Assembly: GCA_964645605.1 (NCBI GenBank)
Contig: CAZYCE010000001.1
Location: 64,063-128,062, forward strand
Source of the DNA: an uncultured Gammaproteobacteria bacterium
Lineage (GTDB): Bacteria > Patescibacteriota > Microgenomatia > UBA8517
Direction of reading: 5' to 3'
DNA: 64,000 nt
Shown: positions 39,309 through 51,578 of the stretch, piece after piece
How positions within the stretch are numbered: position 1 is the first letter of the stretch
How the letters are laid out: every line of letters begins with the position of its first letter
Program-made: the position numbers and the translations under genes
Notes under the pieces: model-generated
Databases searched by the model: none
Told to the model about the DNA's origin: nothing
Seen by the model: the letters and a program-made list of their open reading frames with translations, nothing else

Positions 39309-39675
39309 GGGGACGATCGGTCTCGACGGAATGCTCTTTACAATACTGCAAGCCAAGTTTGATCGACACTTGTCAAAAGAGATCAAAAAATAAAAGCTAG
39401 GAATTCATTCCAAGCCCAACCTAACTACGCAGTAGCGTACGCTTAAGTTGCATCCTTAGATTTGATTCTCGGTTGAATCAAAAGGGTGTAAACCAATCCG
39501 AGATGCTTTTTAAAACTTAATGATTTAGAGTTTTGAAATTAAGCCTAAATAAATCTTACGTTCAGCAGCTGTAAGTTTGCTTAAACTGAACGAAAATTTA
39601 AAAAATTTACTAAGCTTGTAGAGGTTTTGTAGAAAGTTTTTTCGGACGCGGGTTCGATTCCCGCCGTCTCCACAG
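39309..39675 (+). ncRNA. ssrA: Transfer-messenger RNA (tmRNA, ssrA). Predicted tag reading frame ends …AQPNYAVAYA-stop.
   Basis: 5' GGGGACGATCGGTCTCGACGG matches the tmRNA acceptor/D-analog consensus. 3' GGACGCGGGTTCGATTCCCGCCGTCTCCA is the tRNA-like T-arm/acceptor. The internal ORF GCC CAA CCT AAC TAC GCA GTA GCG TAC GCT TAA (39414-39446) resembles ANDENYALAA-type tags. Location just after smpB. Confidence 0.8.
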
Positions 39676-39676
39676 A

Positions 39677-39706
39677 CAAAAAACCGCTATGCCGGCGGGT
39701 TTTTTG
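39677..39706 (+). terminator. Rho-independent terminator after tmRNA (A-tract / stem / T-tract, potentially bidirectional).
   Basis: AAAAAACCGCtatgccGGCGGGTTTTTT. Confidence 0.5.
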
Positions 39707-39720
39707 GTGGAAAAATATGA

Positions 39721-40395
39721 TTGATGGGCATTCTTGACCTTGTTTTTCCGAAAACGTGTCTTGGGTGCGGACGCGGCGGAAGATACTTATGCCAAGCCTG
39801 TATCGATAAAACTCCGAAGGCTGATGCAATCCGCCCGTATTGTAAACACCCCTCCATTGACTGAACTACACACGTAAATTGTCAAAAGAAGTTCGGGATA
39901 GACGGCTTGACCACAATCTGGGGTTATGAGGGAGTTATCAGGAAGGCGATACTGTCGTTAAAATATAAATATGCCACGGAAGTGGCGAATGAAATTTCTG
40001 ATTACTTAATTATTTCACTGGTGAGCAGGGTGATGCCTTCTGTTCAATGTTTAGCTCCGGTTCCGATCCATTGGCATAGACAAAATACAAGGGGATTTAA
40101 TCAATCGGCTGAAATCGGTAAGCTCGTAGTAGCCTCAATAGGGTGTAAATTTACTCAGGATTTATTGATAAAAACCGTTTCAACGGCTTCTCAAACCGAA
40201 CTGGGCAGAAAAGACCGCCGCCGAATTTACGGGGTGTTTTTTCCGTTAATTCCATATATAAATCATCTTTGGTAAATCTGAAATCCGTTATTATTTTTGA
40301 TGATGTTTTACTATCGGTTCAACACTAATGGAGGTGGAAAAAGTTTTAAAAAGAGGGGGCGTGGAAAAAGTTTGGGGACTGACGATTGCAAGATA
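39721..40395 (+). pseudogene. comFC: comFC (ComF family phosphoribosyltransferase-like competence protein) disrupted by one in-frame TGA and two frameshifts.
   Basis: Frame 1, 39721-39861: LMGILDLVFPKTCLGCG…YLCQACID (ComF zinc-finger N-terminus), then TGA at 39862-39864. Same frame resumes at 39907-40275: IWGYEGVIRKAILSLKYKY…LAPVPIHWHRQNTRGFNQSAEI… -1 frame, ~40224-40325: NLRGVF…KSVIIFDDVL. Third frame to 40395: TIGSTLMEVEKVLKRGGVEKVWGLTIAR-stop. The shifts coincide with a CCGCCGCCG repeat and a T-homopolymer. Confidence 0.6.
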
Positions 40396-40401
40396 ACCGT
40401 G

Positions 40402-40483
40402 CGGTAGGTACAGGGGTCGAACCTGTTAGAGCTTGCGCTCACGAGTTTTCAAGACTCGCGCGTTACCGTCCCGCCCACCTACC
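40402..40483 (-). tRNA. tRNA-Ser (anticodon TGA, reads UCA/UCN), long variable arm.
   Basis: Minus-strand sequence GGTAGGTGG…CGAGT-CTTGAAA-ACTCG…long extra arm…ACAGGTTCGACCCCTGT-ACCTACC-G. Anticodon loop CT-TGA-AA. Confidence 0.8.
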
Positions 40484-40489
40484 ACTGAG

Positions 40490-40575
40490 CGGAGGGGGTG
40501 AGATTTGAACTCACGCGAGCCTTGCGGCTCAGAGGTTTAGCGAACCTCCGCAATGGACCGCTATGCGACCCCTCC
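40490..40575 (-). tRNA. tRNA-Ser (anticodon GCT, reads AGY), long variable arm. Only 6 nt from the preceding tRNA-Ser.
   Basis: Minus-strand GGAGGGGTCGCATAGCGGTCCATTGCG-GAGGT-TCGCTAA-ACCTC-TGAGCCGCAAGGCTCGC-GTGAGTTCAAATCTCAC-CCCCTCC-G. Anticodon GCT. Confidence 0.75.
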
Positions 40576-41562
40576 ATATTTGTATTTATTTAGCCTCTGA
40601 TTACTACTACCAACAATATTGAGATATTTTTCTATCTCATGGCTATTATACAGCCAAACCTTCTTATTCACTACGTTCTTGATAATTTTCGGGTGAAACT
40701 TTAATTCTTTGAGTGTTTCGTAAACAAAGGTCAAAAGAGGAACGGAATAGTTGGTGAAGTTGGCTTTTGGGTATATGTATATTTTCCCATTTACTTTATA
40801 CCTGTGGATGAAGATTCCACCATCAGTATCCATCAAACCACGCAAACAGCGAATTTTATATTTTTGGTTCGATTTTATCCAATCTGGTACGTCCACTTGG
40901 TTTTTAACCTTATTACCCGGGACTAATCCAAGTTTTGTTAGAAGTTTGGTTAAGTTGGCTCCGTTATAATAAATTTCCAATGCATTGGCATTATTTCTTT
41001 TCCTGACTTTGGGCTCGTGTCCAAACAAAGATTTGCATAGTTTTACTACATAGTGCGAATAATCCAAATCCTTAATACTGTTTAATGTTATGCGTATTTG
41101 TAATCTTCCCATGCTCCCATCACCAAGCATAATCCCCATGAACTCAGCAAGGTTCGAAGAGCGTTTCGGTGTGTAAAATGTAGCGATTGGTGATATTGAC
41201 CCTGATTTTCTGAGGATTTCTAGAGTTTTTAATCCTCCTTTTTGTCTACCTTCTTTTGTACCTGGATTTCCATATTTTTGTTTGTAGGCAATCCCACCTC
41301 GTTTTCCAATCCGCGATCTATTCGTTTTCCATCTGTTTTCCAATACCCCAACCTTTTCAGGTAAAATGACATTAAACTTGCTGCCTAATATAAGTACGGC
41401 ATTTTTTGAAATTGACATCTTTTCATTTTTCCAATCAGTAAAACTTCTAGGGGAAACACTTACCAAATTAGCCAATTTATTGGTGCCTAAACCGCTTTTT
41501 TGAATCACTGTTTTGAGGAATATCTTTTGATGGTTGGGCAAGAATTTTAGGTGATTTTCCAT
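40561..41562 (-). CDS. Free-standing LAGLIDADG-family homing endonuclease (two LAGLIDADG-like motifs) with an N-terminal HTH-like region. Its 3' end overlaps tRNA-Ser(GCT) by ~15 nt.
   Basis: FMGIMLGDGSMGRLQIRITL and LRGLMDTDGGIFIH motifs are separated by ~100 aa, as in double-motif LAGLIDADG enzymes. The TAG stop lies inside the tRNA 5' end. Confidence 0.65.
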   Translation of the reverse strand: MENHLKFLPNHQKIFLKTVIQKSGLGTNKLANLVSVSPRSFTDWKNEKMSISKNAVLILGSKFNVILPEKVGVLENRWKTNRSRIGKRGGIAYKQKYGNPGTKEGRQKGGLKTLEILRKSGSISPIATFYTPKRSSNLAEFMGIMLGDGSMGRLQIRITLNSIKDLDYSHYVVKLCKSLFGHEPKVRKRNNANALEIYYNGANLTKLLTKLGLVPGNKVKNQVDVPDWIKSNQKYKIRCLRGLMDTDGGIFIHRYKVNGKIYIYPKANFTNYSVPLLTFVYETLKELKFHPKIIKNVVNKKVWLYNSHEIEKYLNIVGSSNQRLNKYKYGGVA

Positions 41563-41623
41563 ATCCGCTAGACGACACCTCCATGATATACTTTTCCAGA
41601 TATAAAATGTATACTACGCATGT

Positions 41624-42160
41624 ATGGAATCTGCCAATAGCACATTAAATGTTGAGCCACAGGCGGTGGTTGTCAGGCGTGAACCTGAACGCGATTTGGT
41701 TACCTGGACGGCGCCAGCGCGGCCATTTAAAAGGTACGGCAGAAAGTTTTATGTAACTATTTTTTCATTTGTAGGAATAATCAGCATAATTCTTTTTATA
41801 GCCGAAGGTGCCATACCGGTAGTGCTCTTAGTTTCACTTATCTTTTTGTTTTATGTTCTTTCTACGGTTTCACCGGAGAATATTGAGTATAAAATAACCA
41901 ATAAGGGAGTCAAAATCGCAGGCAAGGAAACACCCTGGCAAAATATAATCAGGTTTTGTTTTTTGTCAAAAACAGGAGGCGAAGTTTTGGTTTTTGATGC
42001 GGCAACGTTTCCCGGAAGAATAGAGCTTGTCATAAATCCCGAGGACAAAGATAGATTGAAAAAAGAAATTTCTGCATACACTCCTTATGAAGAAATTAAG
42101 CCTTCTTTTTTGGATAAGATTGTGGACTGGGTTGTTAAAAAGCTGCCGGAGAGTGAGTAG
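41624..42160 (+). CDS. Membrane hypothetical protein (178 aa, two TM helices).
   Basis: Hydrophobic hairpin FYVTIFSFVGIISIILFIAEGAIPVVLLVSLIFLFYVL. Confidence 0.4.
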   Translation: MESANSTLNVEPQAVVVRREPERDLVTWTAPARPFKRYGRKFYVTIFSFVGIISIILFIAEGAIPVVLLVSLIFLFYVLSTVSPENIEYKITNKGVKIAGKETPWQNIIRFCFLSKTGGEVLVFDAATFPGRIELVINPEDKDRLKKEISAYTPYEEIKPSFLDKIVDWVVKKLPESE

Positions 42161-42182
42161 GCACAACTCCGAATAAGCATCT

Positions 42183-42255
42183 GCACCCGTAGCTTAACGG
42201 ATAGAGTAGGAGCTTGCGGAGCTCTTGGTCCCAGTCCGATTCTGGGCGGGTGCAC
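42183..42255 (+). tRNA. tRNA-like gene, best read as tRNA-Arg (anticodon GCG). The T-loop (TCCGATT) is non-canonical.
   Basis: GCACCCG-TA-GCTT-AACGGATA-GAGT-A-GGAGC-TTGCGGA-GCTCT-TGGT-CCCAG-TCCGATT-CTGGG-CGGGTGC-A-CC. Seven-bp acceptor, anticodon loop TT-GCG-GA. Confidence 0.45.
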
Positions 42256-42259
42256 CTAA

Positions 42260-42341
42260 GGAGGATGGGCAGGACGGTAATGCGTTGGTTTCGAAAACCA
42301 ATTCTCGTAAGGGATAGCAGGTTCGACTCCTGCATCCTCCG
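42260..42341 (+). tRNA. tRNA-Ser (anticodon CGA, reads UCG), long variable arm.
   Basis: GGAGGAT…TTGGT-TTCGAAA-ACCAA…GCAGGTTCGACTCCTGC-ATCCTCC-G. Anticodon loop TT-CGA-AA. Confidence 0.75.
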
Positions 42342-42461
42342 CTCGTCGGAACTAAACATTGCTGGTCGTTTTTCAAAACTGAGAGTTTTGAAAAAGATTG
42401 CAAGTTTGTTCCTTCTCTCGGAATTGTTGTACAATTTCGGTTGGAAACATAGATACAAGAG

Positions 42462-42908
42462 ATGGATACAAAAATAAATCAACAAATATTTATAGGAGGC
42501 GCAGTGGTTTTCAAAGATAACCGTGGCAAGCGCCAGTATTTGCTGGTTAAAACGAAAATAGATAGTAACTGGGAAATTCCCAAAGTAACGGTGAGAAGGG
42601 GAGAATCCTCTGTGCGTGCCGTGATTAGACTTACGGGAGAGCAGGGGGGGATTACGGCCAGAATTTTGGAAGAAGCGGGTAGATATTCGGTAACCACGAT
42701 AATAAACGGCAATACCATTCCCCAGAAATATTATTATTACTTGATGCTTCAAAAAGGAGGCCCTGGAGAAATGATCGGATTTCAAGATTACAAATGGATG
42801 GAATTTCCAAATGCCTTGAAAAAGATTGATTCCGAGAAAGAGAAAGAGATGCTCAAAAGTGCAAAAAAGGTATTGAAGGAGTGGGAATCCACACATAGGG
42901 TTAAATAA
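42462..42908 (+). CDS. Nudix hydrolase family protein.
   Basis: Nudix-box-like RGESSVRAVIRLTGEQGGI (GX5EX7REUXEEXGU pattern). Confidence 0.55.
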   Translation: MDTKINQQIFIGGAVVFKDNRGKRQYLLVKTKIDSNWEIPKVTVRRGESSVRAVIRLTGEQGGITARILEEAGRYSVTTIINGNTIPQKYYYYLMLQKGGPGEMIGFQDYKWMEFPNALKKIDSEKEKEMLKSAKKVLKEWESTHRVK

Positions 42909-42913
42909 AGCCA

Positions 42914-43390
42914 ATGTTGCGCGAGTTTTCTTCTGGCGGAGTAGTCTACAAGAAAGAAAAAGGAGAGGTTCTGTGGGTAGTAAGGATGACTGCTGCCAGT
43001 AAACTTTTTCCCAAAACACACTGGATGCTTCCAAAGGGTTGGTTGGATGATGCGGGAGATGGTGTCCCCGGGCCAATGGCCTCGGGCACGTTAAAGGCTG
43101 ACGAAAAAACGCTTCAGGCAACTGCGGTCCGTGAAGTTGTGGAAGAAACGGGAGTTAAGGCTGAAATTATTAAAAAAATTGGGACGCTTAAATATGTTTA
43201 TACCCATCCTGAAAGGGGTAAAACTTTAAAATTTGTCACTTACTTCCTAATGGAGTGGAAATCCGACCTACCAGGAGGTTTTGACGGAGAAACCTCAGAA
43301 ATTGCCTGGCTTCCGTATGGGGAAGCTTATAAAAGACTTTCTTTTGGTAAAGAGAAGGAAGTGCTGAAAAAAGCAAACGCTCTTCTTTGA
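42914..43390 (+). CDS. Nudix hydrolase family protein (second, tandem).
   Basis: Nudix box …EKTLQATAVREVVEETGV…. Confidence 0.6.
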   Translation: MLREFSSGGVVYKKEKGEVLWVVRMTAASKLFPKTHWMLPKGWLDDAGDGVPGPMASGTLKADEKTLQATAVREVVEETGVKAEIIKKIGTLKYVYTHPERGKTLKFVTYFLMEWKSDLPGGFDGETSEIAWLPYGEAYKRLSFGKEKEVLKKANALL

Positions 43391-43407
43391 TATAATACAA
43401 GTTCAAT

Positions 43408-43492
43408 GGAGGAGTCGCCTAGTGGCCTATGGCACGGGTTTGGAAAACCCGGACCCGAAAGGGTCTCGTGAGTTCGAATCTCACCTCCTCCG
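43408..43492 (+). tRNA. tRNA-Ser (anticodon GGA, reads UCC/UCU), long variable arm.
   Basis: GGAGGAGTCGCCTAGTGGCCTATGGCA-CGGGT-TTGGAAA-ACCCG-GACCCGAAAGGGTCTC-GTGAGTTCGAATCTCAC-CTCCTCC-G. Confidence 0.8.
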
Positions 43493-43533
43493 CATTTTGT
43501 AATGATGACAATATATAAATGATATAATCGCCT

Positions 43534-45048
43534 ATGTCTATTAAAAAAATTTCTCCAATCGCAATTGCCACCCTGGTCGTAATTTTGGTTGTCGGTTTTT
43601 TATTTTTGAAAAGAGAAAAAAACTCCTCTTTTGATCAGGTGGTTTACGAAGAAGCACTGTCTATTTCCAAAAAATATGCCTTGCTTAGATACCAAACTGA
43701 GAATGTTTTGGAAAAAGCTAAAGAATATGGAGACTATGACAAGTGGAATCAGGAAATGACACTAATTATTGAAGGTTGGAAAAGTATGGAAAGTGAAGCC
43801 TTAATGCTCGAAGAAAAGGCCGATAATCTAGCCAGTGAAAAAACAGCACCTAATTTAGTTAAAGATGTTTATGCTTATGACTCAGTTGAAGTTCAACAAG
43901 TCATTAAAAATGCCCCTGCGGGTAAACAAATTAGAACTTTAGCTAAACATCTCGGAGTTGATGCCAAAACGGCTCAACTGATTTTAAATCAAACCCAAGA
44001 TCAGATTACCCGAGAAGCCTATGGAGAAGAAGGAGATGTGTTTGAAACCTGTGAACAAAATTCCATGAGAATTAAAAATGGAGCCAAAGTAACGATGTTT
44101 GTTGGAGGAATAGCACTGACAGGGGGCGCTTCGGCGGTCGCTACCAGTGGAGTGGTAGCAAAAACAGCCTTGGTTGTTGGAGGAGCCGATTTAGTGCTCG
44201 AAGTAACCGATGATGAGGCTAAAATTGCCTTGGGAGATAGAAATAAAGTGTCAGAAATGGTGGGCAAAGTCAGAACGGTGACGGAACCAACGGCTAGTAT
44301 TTTAACTATAGTTAATATTCCGGGAAATATAACTAAAGCTATGGATAAAATAAGTGCCCTTTCTTTTACTGGAGATCAGATTAGATCAGTAGCCCAAGAT
44401 GAAAAAATCTTGGGAATTAGTATTAAAACTAATGAAAAAGGTGAAGTAAAAGCCGTCGTCAGCGGTCTAACTGAAATTGAATTAACTGAGTGGAAAAAAG
44501 AAAATAATATCGTCACTTCGATTCAGTCGATTGAAGAGATGATAAAGCAAATTGAAGAAGAAAGTGCAAAAGAAAAAGAAATTGTCCAAGAAAAACAGAA
44601 TAGGGTTGAAGAAAAAAAAGAGACATCTGCATCTGAAATTAATTTAGAAAATATTCCAAATCAGATCTACGAAGTGAAAAATGTAAGTGGATCGTCTTTT
44701 ATGATGGATGTCTGTCTTAATCCAACTTGTTGGGATGATCTAGCGGCTAACCCAGCAGAAGATAGGGATGTGGGTGGCATTTATACGATGGGAAAAGTTT
44801 ACGGTCCTGGAGAAAGTTTTAAAAGTGGTTTTCGTCCATCAGATCTAAAAAGCAACAGCCAAATAGCGGAGATGTTACCAGATGGTTATAGAATAACGGT
44901 TTATTTCGCCATAGCTCCTTTTGAAGGCCCCAAACATAAAACAATTGATTATGGAACTTGGCAAAACCATTCTGTGGAAATACAAGCGAAATATGGCGAT
45001 GAACCGGTGATCGAATGGGACGGAGGTAGCTTAAAACAAGTTAAGTAA
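43534..45048 (+). CDS. Membrane-anchored hypothetical protein (504 aa) with a coiled-coil/acidic middle region.
   Basis: N-terminal TM ISPIAIATLVVILVVGFLFL. No known motif. Confidence 0.4.
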   Translation: MSIKKISPIAIATLVVILVVGFLFLKREKNSSFDQVVYEEALSISKKYALLRYQTENVLEKAKEYGDYDKWNQEMTLIIEGWKSMESEALMLEEKADNLASEKTAPNLVKDVYAYDSVEVQQVIKNAPAGKQIRTLAKHLGVDAKTAQLILNQTQDQITREAYGEEGDVFETCEQNSMRIKNGAKVTMFVGGIALTGGASAVATSGVVAKTALVVGGADLVLEVTDDEAKIALGDRNKVSEMVGKVRTVTEPTASILTIVNIPGNITKAMDKISALSFTGDQIRSVAQDEKILGISIKTNEKGEVKAVVSGLTEIELTEWKKENNIVTSIQSIEEMIKQIEEESAKEKEIVQEKQNRVEEKKETSASEINLENIPNQIYEVKNVSGSSFMMDVCLNPTCWDDLAANPAEDRDVGGIYTMGKVYGPGESFKSGFRPSDLKSNSQIAEMLPDGYRITVYFAIAPFEGPKHKTIDYGTWQNHSVEIQAKYGDEPVIEWDGGSLKQVK

Positions 45049-51157: not shown

Positions 51158-51311
51158 GAGAAGAGTATACCACTAAAGTAATTAATAATTAATAATTTAT
51201 AATTTACAACTTATAAGTTTTAAAAGCGCGAAAACTAGGTTATAATAGCTTCAGAGAATAGTAATTATTACTTGTAAATTATTGATTATAAATTCTCTTG
51301 TTCTTTTATAT

Positions 51312-51578
51312 TCCCCTGTAGCTCAATGGTAGAGCGAGATCCTGTCTGGTTTGGCAGCTCTTGACAGTAATGTCGGGATGAAAATCAGGCTAATTCGGGG
51401 AACCCCTCCTTCGTATAAAACTACGGAAGGGTAATCCCGAGCTAAATCACAAAAGTGTAAATGTGTAGAGACTATATACCTGACACCCTTTGGGGTGATA
51501 AGATAGTCCGATCCTTTTGGTAACAGAAGGGCTATTGTAAGATCGAGGTTGGAGGTTCGAGTCCTCCCGGGGGAGCCA
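51312..51578 (+). tRNA. tRNA-Asn (anticodon GTT) interrupted in the anticodon loop by a ~192-nt group I intron. Exons are 51312-51345 and 51538-51575(+CCA to 51578).
   Basis: 5' exon TCCCCTG-TA-GCTC-AATGGTA-GAGC-G-AGATC-CTGT. 3' exon TAA-GATCG-AGGTT-GGAGG-TTCGAGT-CCTCC-CGGGGGA-G-CCA. Reconstituted loop CTGTTAA matches the E. coli tRNA-Asn loop. G73 discriminator and acceptor resemble bacterial tRNA-Asn. Confidence 0.7.
51346..51537 (+). ncRNA. Group I self-splicing intron (catalytic core R/S elements present) inserted between anticodon positions 35 and 36 of tRNA-Asn.
   Basis: GTGTAGAGACTATA (R-like, cf. UCAGAGACUA) and AAGATAGTCCG (S-like, cf. AAGAUAUAGUCC) form P7 (GACTA/TAGTC). The intron ends with G (omega-G) right before exon TAA. 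The 5' exon ends in T (U•G in P1). Confidence 0.7.

Follow-up and report, generated by a model that had tools for sequence, protein, structure and literature searches.

Homing endonucleases usually spare their host by sitting in introns or inteins, and the locus studied here raises the question of what a free-standing LAGLIDADG endonuclease gene does with its last codons inside a transfer RNA (tRNA) gene, within a cluster of four tRNA-Ser genes. The locus lies in a 64-kb stretch of DNA, the whole of which was analyzed (the window); loci from relatives are coded L001 etc. Comparison of sequences suggests that the gene is probably part of a free-standing homing-endonuclease-plus-tRNA cassette that targets tRNA-Ser genes and sits in the tRNA-Ser(GCU) gene of an ancestral cluster. 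The features of the putative cassette, by position in the window, are:

40489-40575, minus strand: tRNA-Ser(GCU) gene, linked to the endonuclease open reading frame (ORF) (ARAGORN, Rfam)
40561-41562, minus strand: gene for a free-standing endonuclease of 333 amino acids (aa) with a helix-turn-helix (HTH) and a double LAGLIDADG motif (Pfam, AlphaFold2, alignment)
41563-41582, minus strand: tRNA-Ser 5' fragment of 20 nucleotides (nt), GGAGGTGTCGTCTAGCGGAT, directly 5' of the ATG (direct-repeat and position weight matrix analysis)
41585-41590, minus strand: -10-like hexamer TATATC, 2 nt 5' of the fragment (sequence comparison)

An endonuclease gene that ends inside tRNA-Ser(GCU)

The TAG stop codon of the ORF (40561-40563) coincides with nt 13-15 of tRNA-Ser(GCU), so that the two overlap by 15 nt and the first 15 nt of the tRNA gene serve as the final four codons of the ORF and its stop. 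On the coding strand the order is TATATC, the dinucleotide at, GGAGGTGTCGTCTAGCGGAT, the ATG and body of the ORF, and then GGAGGGGTCGCATAG(stop)CGG and the rest of tRNA-Ser(gct). A preliminary description of this DNA had placed the stop of a double-motif LAGLIDADG ORF inside this tRNA gene, as was found here. It had also called the endonuclease a remnant, a view that is contradicted by the full length of the ORF, by two catalytic Asp residues that are invariant in 81 of 81 relatives and by the copy of 98-99% identity in a second genome. The gene is intact and full length.

The protein carries an N-terminal HTH at about residues 11-62, followed by motif 1, FMGIMLGDGS, with catalytic D148, and motif 2, LRGLMDTDGG, with catalytic D247. 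Both Asp residues were invariant in 25 of 25 and in 81 of 81 aligned relatives, where RGLMDTDG of motif 2 was a search seed and motif 1 was not. Pfam matches were marginal (PF03161, LAGLIDADG_2, 25.9 against a gathering score of 25; PF14528, LAGLIDADG_3, 25.9 against 22.5). The AlphaFold2 model (predicted local distance difference test score 88.6) has an N-terminal helical HTH module and then a tandem LAGLIDADG core (alpha-beta-beta-alpha-beta-beta-alpha). Its best match in the PDB is the archaeal, intron-encoded I-Tsp061I (2dch; Foldseek E 1e-10, target-normalized template modeling score 0.76), and the best 50 of 122 Foldseek matches to the PDB (E <= 0.001) were all LAGLIDADG enzymes, inteins, maturases or WhiA. 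Further fold matches were to inteins, I-AniI, I-SceI, the I-OnuI family and WhiA, and a profile search against the PDB returned intein endonuclease domains (E 1e-6) and I-Tsp061I. Motifs, family scores and fold agree, and the protein is a monomeric, two-motif member of the LAGLIDADG superfamily. The invariance of D148 and D247 and the monomeric double-LAGLIDADG fold of the model make the enzyme look catalytically active, and its DNA recognition could be extended by the N-terminal HTH.

Two other identities were considered. An intron- or intein-encoded endonuclease was ruled out: tRNA-Ser(GCU) is contiguous, Rfam found no intron at 40400-41700, the Pfam and NCBIfam matches of the ORF include no Hint or intein-splicing-domain family, and the ORF has its own start and stop. 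WhiA, represented among the fold matches by 8dy9 and 3hyi, resembles the protein in combining a double-LAGLIDADG scaffold with an HTH. In WhiA the HTH is C-terminal and the LAGLIDADG domains are without catalytic acidic residues, whereas the present protein has an N-terminal HTH and two invariant Asp residues; the position of the HTH, the retained Asp residues and a PF14527 score of 19.4, below the cut-off of 23.2, ruled out WhiA.

Occupied and empty sites

A gene next to the cassette was used as an anchor to locate empty sites. It and the tract discussed below are:

41624-42160, plus strand: conserved membrane-protein gene, 178 aa, function unassigned, divergent from the endonuclease gene
39720-41830: tract of high identity to L082, from comFC through both tRNA genes and the endonuclease gene into the 5' part of the 178-aa gene

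Six sister lineages with 178-aa proteins 73-85% identical to that of the window (L084, L086, L088, L090, L108, and L109) have an empty site. The gene order that they have in common with the window is smpB, the transfer-messenger RNA (tmRNA) gene, comFC, Ser(tga), Ser(gct), the 178-aa gene, Arg(gcg), Ser(cga), two NUDIX genes and Ser(gga), and in all six the space from Ser(gct) to the 178-aa gene is free of ORFs. Occupied sites are those of the window, L001, L082/L083, and L002, and the slot holds an unrelated ORF in L111/L113. Six sister lineages are syntenic and do without the ORF, which shows that the endonuclease gene is an insertion, a possibility that the preliminary description had raised, with a presence/absence polymorphism at one locus.

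The insertion appears to have changed the tRNA gene as well. The resident tRNA-Ser(gct) is identical in L088, L090, L108, and L109 and a close variant occurs in L086, whereas the tRNA-Ser(GCU) of the window is only 60-73% identical to the resident gene of the empty sites. L002, whose endonuclease is 68% identical to that of the window, has a tRNA-Ser(gct) of the window type (81% identical). Since the Ser(gct) gene of the window is diverged, its other tRNA-Ser genes are of resident type and L002 has the window type, the ORF and the tRNA that it overlaps seem to travel together. The comparison thus points to a cassette that brought a different tRNA-Ser(GCU) in place of the resident gene, no more than the first 20 nt of which would be left.

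The tract at 39720-41830, with the endonuclease gene at its center, is 96-100% identical to L082, against a background of 88% over 5.7 kb and 72-82% in adjoining genes. Within it the endonuclease ORF is 98.3% identical at the nucleotide level, both adjacent tRNA genes and the upstream spacer are 100% identical, and comFC is 95.9% identical; the NUDIX genes are 72% identical. Identity falls to 74-82% inside the 178-aa gene, with a breakpoint near 41830-41870. We read the tract as recent recombination or co-conversion, and because the cassette is 98.3% identical against a background of 88%, its transfer would postdate the divergence of the window and L082. The Ser(cga) and Ser(gga) genes of L082 are of a different allelic type from those of the window. 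The locus as a whole is a recombination mosaic, with the cassette as its best-conserved piece.

Ser(cga) and Ser(gga) each occur as two allelic types of about 65-69% identity, whose spread is incongruent among close relatives (L082, L084, L088, L108, L109, L111, and L113). This two-type mosaic may hold the footprints of earlier cassette invasions that have since been lost. Synteny between the window and L082 stops just left of comFC, where the window has tmRNA and smpB and L082 an Mrr-type restriction gene (window 39309-39720), and again after the NUDIX genes, where the window has a 504-aa ORF and L082 an F420-ligase-like gene (window 43534-45048).

Association with tRNA-Ser genes across phyla

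The endonuclease has 462 database relatives of nearly constant length. A scan of species-representative genomes returned 225 relatives, from which 80 loci were kept, and the family counts given here and below are over 81 (or 80) loci. The homologs in these loci have 32-68% identity, and their hosts include many classes of Patescibacteria, Omnitrophota, Nitrospirales (including one complete chromosome) and contigs labeled Planctomycetes and Anaerolineae. A tRNA-Ser gene on the same strand started at -105 to +40 nt of the ORF stop in 68 of the 81 loci. The other 13 comprised four that are cut by a contig end, eight with a tRNA-Ser on the opposite strand at no more than about 130 nt and one without any nearby. 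The adjacent tRNA was always tRNA-Ser and no other tRNA species. With four Ser genes per genome of about 1 Mb, an estimate of typical size, adjacency to tRNA-Ser by chance is expected in fewer than one in 1000 genes.

Which isoacceptor is adjacent (gct, tga, cga, gga, or 'act') tracks the protein clade in a neighbor-joining tree. Ser(gct) is found with two clades of Patescibacteria and one of loci labeled Omnitrophota and Planctomycetia, Ser(gga) with a Microgenomates/Saccharibacteria clade, Ser(cga) with a clade of Omnitrophota and loci labeled Planctomycetales, and Ser(tga) with a Nitrospirales clade. Many homologs end in ...GGVA or ...GG, the translated 5' end of the tRNA. These patterns show a tie between the protein family and tRNA-Ser genes that holds across phyla. 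Searches of the open-access literature turned up no account of such a bacterial LAGLIDADG/tRNA-Ser association, which at the level of the family appears new.

The 5' fragment and a proposed mechanism

The top direct repeat around the ORF pairs 40558-40577, the tRNA 5' end, with 41565-41584 (17 of 20 positions identical). A recurrent layout was found in relatives, with a TATAAT-like box, the 20-nt tRNA-Ser 5' fragment and at once the start codon; the hexamer position is occupied by TATAAT or TATATA. In Parcubacteria and Omnitrophota the start codon lies inside the fragment, at tRNA nt 7-9. A position weight matrix built on nt 1-20 of tRNA-Ser was scored on 80 upstream regions; 36 exceeded the 95th percentile of background (four expected) and 17 the 99th percentile (0.8 expected). 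About 30 loci had their best match at a constant distance of -20/-21 from codon 1, and loci of the gga clade had theirs at -38 to -43. Fragments generally resemble the 5' ends of canonical, resident-type tRNA-Ser; that of L009, GGAGGTATTGCCGAGCGGAT, for example, resembles the resident tRNA of L088, GGAGGATATGCCGAGCGGCT. No recognizable fragment was found in Nitrospirota, in the 'act' loci, in L069/L070 or in several other loci labeled Omnitrophota or Planctomycetia. Scored as a plain match to the downstream tRNA, the fragment was significant in only about 10 loci, and the family-wide view needed both the matrix and the position. In our reading, the 20-nt fragment was once the 5' end of a tRNA-Ser gene and has been displaced.

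The cassette would thus consist of the promoter-proximal 20-nt 5' fragment, the 333-aa ORF and its own tRNA-Ser(GCU), fused to the last codons. Its enzyme would recognize tRNA-Ser genes that are free of the cassette and cut them in the D-loop region near nt 20, and the insertion point would be marked by nt 20/21, where the fragment has its fixed end. A cassette-bearing allele would then serve as template for repair of the double-strand break, by which the ORF and its linked tRNA would enter the broken gene. Essential tRNA function would never be lost, because the two would be copied in together. The process would amount to intronless homing with built-in replacement of the target gene.

Several observations weigh against this mechanism. 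The only marker of the putative target site is the boundary of the 5' fragment, and cleavage is something that we infer. The linked tRNA is intact, which leaves the immunity of the cassette-bearing allele without explanation. A rule based on the D-arm was tried and rejected as a general account of immunity, because the GTCNNNTAG type is common to linked and free genes (15 of 38 linked and 6 of 18 free gct genes) and does not separate them across the family; replacement of alleles within lineages holds nonetheless. The fragment in the window is slightly nearer to the linked tRNA (15 of 20) than to the resident type (13 of 20), and part of the invariance of motif 2 comes from its use as a search seed. 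The high-identity tract could reflect ordinary homologous recombination at a conserved tRNA locus. Protein clades largely track host phyla, and seven Nitrospirota loci, six of them with a common upstream gene, are without the 5' fragment; these loci look vertically inherited, which fits long-term residence or domestication. Viral contigs of IMG/VR yielded distant, partial LAGLIDADG relatives (25-33% identity) and no close relative. A phage vector was set aside on this ground and because the match in PHROGs was to a generic 'endonuclease' only.

Alternative explanations

The ORFs are long-lived and intact, and they keep a constant length at 32-68% identity across phyla. Together with clades that track host taxa, six of seven Nitrospirota loci that are syntenic and seemingly vertical, and an N-terminal HTH, this would suit a domesticated DNA-binding host factor for tRNA-Ser genes, a WhiA-like regulator or a guardian of replication or recombination that is co-regulated with its target. 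Co-transcription of the ORF with the tRNA is also almost certain, because there is no space for a separate promoter. We nevertheless consider such a factor unlikely. Six of the nine sampled sister lineages do without the gene and have no substitute, except for the unrelated ORF in one. Both catalytic Asp residues are invariant in the family, whereas WhiA and maturases have lost theirs. The associated isoacceptor differs between clades, the resident tRNA allele appears to have been replaced, and the tract of high identity around the gene is mosaic.

An element that arrived by homing may also have become stranded, immobile and kept only by its overlap and co-transcription with an essential tRNA gene. 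A 15-nt overlap and a common promoter would make precise loss of the ORF unlikely, and defective relatives do occur: L055 encodes 240 aa, L025 has an internal stop and one clade of 260 aa is without the HTH. That the element in the window is such a passenger is improbable, given that the L082 copy is 98.3% identical at the nucleotide level against a genome background of 88%, which points to transfer after divergence, and that the ORF is free of disabling mutations while the adjoining comFC has three.

Integration of a recombinase or transposase type, with the 20-nt repeats as target-site duplications or att-like sites and the LAGLIDADG protein as cargo or accessory, would account for direct repeats (17 of 20) that flank a unit of about 1 kb in a layout that mirrors integrative elements rebuilding tRNA genes, but it is very improbable, since neither the unit nor its surroundings contain an integrase or transposase, the neighbors are conserved housekeeping genes, the whole downstream tRNA differs from the resident gene beyond its first 20 nt, and the repeat is missing in many clades.

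A second ORF family in the same slot

In L111 (1953-2591, minus strand) and L113 (128-766, minus strand), whose 178-aa proteins are 77% identical to that of the window, the slot 5' of tRNA-Ser(gct) is taken by a 212-aa ORF of like orientation. This ORF combines an N-terminal HTH with an invariant Y-x-C-E-G-x-K-Y-P motif and has 63 relatives. Its last residues are GGVA*, the TAG stop falls in the D-loop of a further tRNA-Ser(gct) allele, and the C-termini of several relatives, e.g., GGVAEWSKAGVR and GEVAERLKASVC, are translated tRNA-Ser 5' ends. The ORF of L115 overlaps tRNA-Ser(gct) by 46 nt and that of L114 lies 4 nt downstream of a tRNA-Ser(gct). Foldseek found no fold match for the 212-aa family in the PDB, and 4 of 26 members had sub-threshold LAGLIDADG_3 matches. 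Homology of the two ORF families was rejected: hhalign aligned the HTH region alone (probability 36%) and BLASTP gave a weak match at the motif (E 0.005).

Rival selfish-looking genes at one conserved site are typical of homing sites. A wider reading, which we hold tentatively as somewhat short of an even chance, is that a hitherto unrecognized, phylum-spanning guild of small selfish cassettes lives on tRNA-Ser genes and can invade an essential single-copy gene with no need of an intron, with at least two unrelated ORF families converged on the slot, invasion and loss shaping the two-type mosaic, and some lineages (e.g., Nitrospirales) maybe domesticated.

Relation to known systems

The closest parallel in function is SegB of phage T4, a free-standing GIY-YIG homing endonuclease in a tRNA gene cluster (PMC2330249). 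Its recognition site includes the conserved T-psi-C motif of tRNA genes, and it spreads with adjacent tRNA genes, displacing the tRNA markers of the recipient (PMC2330249). Like SegB, the gene in the window is a free-standing endonuclease gene among tRNA genes. Unlike SegB, it is of the LAGLIDADG type, chromosomal and tied to tRNA-Ser rather than to a generic motif; it also overlaps the tRNA and has a displaced 5' fragment, of which none is described for SegB, and its cleavage activity is deduced.

Among Candidate Phyla Radiation (CPR) bacteria, LAGLIDADG enzymes are encoded in introns of ribosomal RNA (rRNA) genes, in a survey that makes no mention of tRNA (PMC11270868). The endonuclease has in common with I-Tsp061I (2dch) and the CPR and archaeal rRNA-intron enzymes the fold, a LAGLIDADG_3-type family, conserved structural-RNA genes as (here putative) targets and CPR hosts. 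It differs from them in lying in no intron or insertion, next to a contiguous tRNA, in an extra N-terminal HTH domain of about 120 aa and in a linked replacement copy instead of splicing.

Prophages, genomic islands and other integrative elements that target tRNA genes use tyrosine or serine recombinases, rebuild the 3' end of the tRNA and span from a few to hundreds of kb. The cassette would be like them in carrying a replacement for the displaced part and in leaving a partial tRNA copy at the far end, and unlike them in being a unit of about 1.1 kb, on the 5' side, without a recombinase and with a whole tRNA.

If the proposed mechanism is right, bringing along a spare copy of the destroyed gene would be a third solution besides introns and inteins, applied to an essential tRNA in genomes that seemingly have one copy per Ser isoacceptor. 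The mechanism would account for some of the allelic mosaicism among tRNA genes of Patescibacteria and would be a warning that these genes can move horizontally. The family would also be a natural set of meganucleases whose targets can be guessed from the adjoining tRNA gene, and a case in which endonuclease, tRNA and expression control by RNase P and tmRNA are linked. In annotation, both the overlap of ORF and tRNA and the 5' fragment can serve as markers.

Expression of the ORF

The fragment supplies a Shine-Dalgarno-like GGAGG 15 nt 5' of the ATG, and the hexamer is a putative promoter inherited from the tRNA gene. The ORF would then probably be transcribed from the old tRNA promoter, jointly with the tRNAs. 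A consensus promoter scan of 39600-43600 returned no more sites than shuffled sequence and none at the proposed promoter. Because the stop codon sits inside the tRNA, a cut by RNase P at the tRNA 5' end would remove it and leave a non-stop mRNA, speculatively a possible brake on expression.

A different arrangement occurs in clades without the tRNA 5' fragment, where a promoter-like element, TTGACA...TTCGGGTTTTGTTAGTATTAA, precedes ORFs of both families. It ends 3-4 nt 5' of the ATG and lies 5' of the ORFs in L111 (2592-2640, minus strand), L016, L017, L021, L024, L025, L026, L031, L034, L062, and L011. The short distance between element and ATG suggests that the mRNA behind it is leaderless.

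The tRNA cluster and its neighbors

ARAGORN called six RNA genes in the window, all at 39.3-43.5 kb. Besides tRNA-Ser(GCU), these and the remaining neighbors are:

39309-39673, plus strand: tmRNA gene (ARAGORN, Rfam)
39724-40396, plus strand: comFC pseudogene, convergent with tRNA-Ser(UGA), a bystander (Pfam)
40401-40483, minus strand: tRNA-Ser(UGA) gene, resident type, 98% identical to L084 (ARAGORN, Rfam)
42183-42256, plus strand: tRNA-Arg(GCG) gene, half of a conserved Arg(GCG)-Ser(CGA) pair (ARAGORN, Rfam)
42260-42342, plus strand: tRNA-Ser(CGA) gene, resident type, identical to L090 (ARAGORN, Rfam)
42462-42908 and 42914-43390: two NUDIX genes, 5' of tRNA-Ser(GGA)
43408-43493, plus strand: tRNA-Ser(GGA) gene, resident type, identical to L090, downstream of the two NUDIX genes (ARAGORN, Rfam)

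Rfam scored the RNA genes of the window at 45-57 bits (gathering score 29), and the RF00005 scores of 45-53 bits and the ARAGORN calls identify all four tRNA-Ser as class II tRNAs. Only 5 nt separate tRNA-Ser(UGA) from tRNA-Ser(GCU) on the minus strand. The four tRNA-Ser isoacceptors of the preliminary description (TGA and GCT on the minus strand, CGA and GGA on the plus strand) and its tRNA-Arg(GCG) are thus all called by both programs. The four-Ser cluster is not the product of the element, nor is it special to this organism, as that description had implied it might be; it recurs in endonuclease-free relatives and across Patescibacteria. Four Ser genes and Arg(gcg) lie within 2.4-9.4 kb in 18 of the 81 loci of endonuclease relatives and are present also in five relatives that are free of the endonuclease. 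Ser and Arg account for 233 of the 259 tRNA genes of the 81 loci, and their clustering is not due to chance. Because the four-Ser/Arg cluster is kept in relatives without the endonuclease, it is ancestral and, from the loci compared, conserved in Patescibacteria and some Omnitrophota.

The supercluster in these phyla holds the four Ser isoacceptors and Arg(gcg), often with Arg(ccg), and in 22 of 34 cases no more than 200 nt lie between Arg(gcg) and Ser(cga). The GCG anticodon is itself unusual, since in bacteria CGN is usually read by Arg(ACG). In two empty sites, those of L086 (4791-4963) and L109 (868-1040), the Ser(gct)-Ser(tga) pair has the opposite orientation to that in the window; about 360 nt of non-coding DNA with a T-arm-like remnant come before it in L086. 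ARAGORN also called tRNA-Ser genes with the anticodon ACT in L008, L016, L017, L018, L021, L024, L025, L031, and L055, usually beside Ser(gct); in four loci such a gene is the direct 3' neighbor of the endonuclease ORF. The Ser(ACT) genes may be duplicated cassette tRNAs, true A34 tRNAs or decaying copies. Contigs labeled Gammaproteobacteria, Pseudomonadales, Nevskiaceae, Bathyarchaeia, or Clostridia (L003, L004, L006, L007, L009, L017, L020 etc.) bear the Ser/Arg cluster typical of Patescibacteria and close relatives of the endonuclease, and for this reason the taxonomic labels of these contigs from metagenome-assembled genomes are probably wrong.

The comFC gene is broken, as the preliminary description had stated. 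Scored against an intact, 96%-identical ortholog of 224 aa in L082, its lesions are a nonsense change (GGA to TGA) at 39862-39864 and two deletions of 1 nt, one near 40224 and the other near 40306. Sequencing error was ruled out, since one lesion is a substitution, one deletion lies outside a homopolymer and neighboring long ORFs are intact. The comFC stop is 5 nt from the 3' end of tRNA-Ser(UGA). The same cassette stands beside an intact comFC in L082/L083, which separates the decay of comFC from the element. Of the past mobile-element activity that had been proposed for the locus, the insertion is thus supported by the locus comparison, whereas comFC decay does not belong to it.

Default tRNA scans overlook genes in these genomes, as a tRNA-Asn(GUU) gene elsewhere in the window illustrates. 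In this gene (51312-51578, plus strand) a group I intron of about 193 nt splits the anticodon loop; the match to RF00028 at 51232-51530 (66 bits) is the only one to a group I intron in the window. ARAGORN overlooks the gene by default and in intron mode wrongly calls Thr(tgt); the L082 ortholog (1164-1238) is a tRNA-Asn(gtt) without an intron. Joining of the exons at CCTGT|TAAGATC gives the loop CUGUUAA, with a U before the 5' splice site and a G at the 3' end of the intron.

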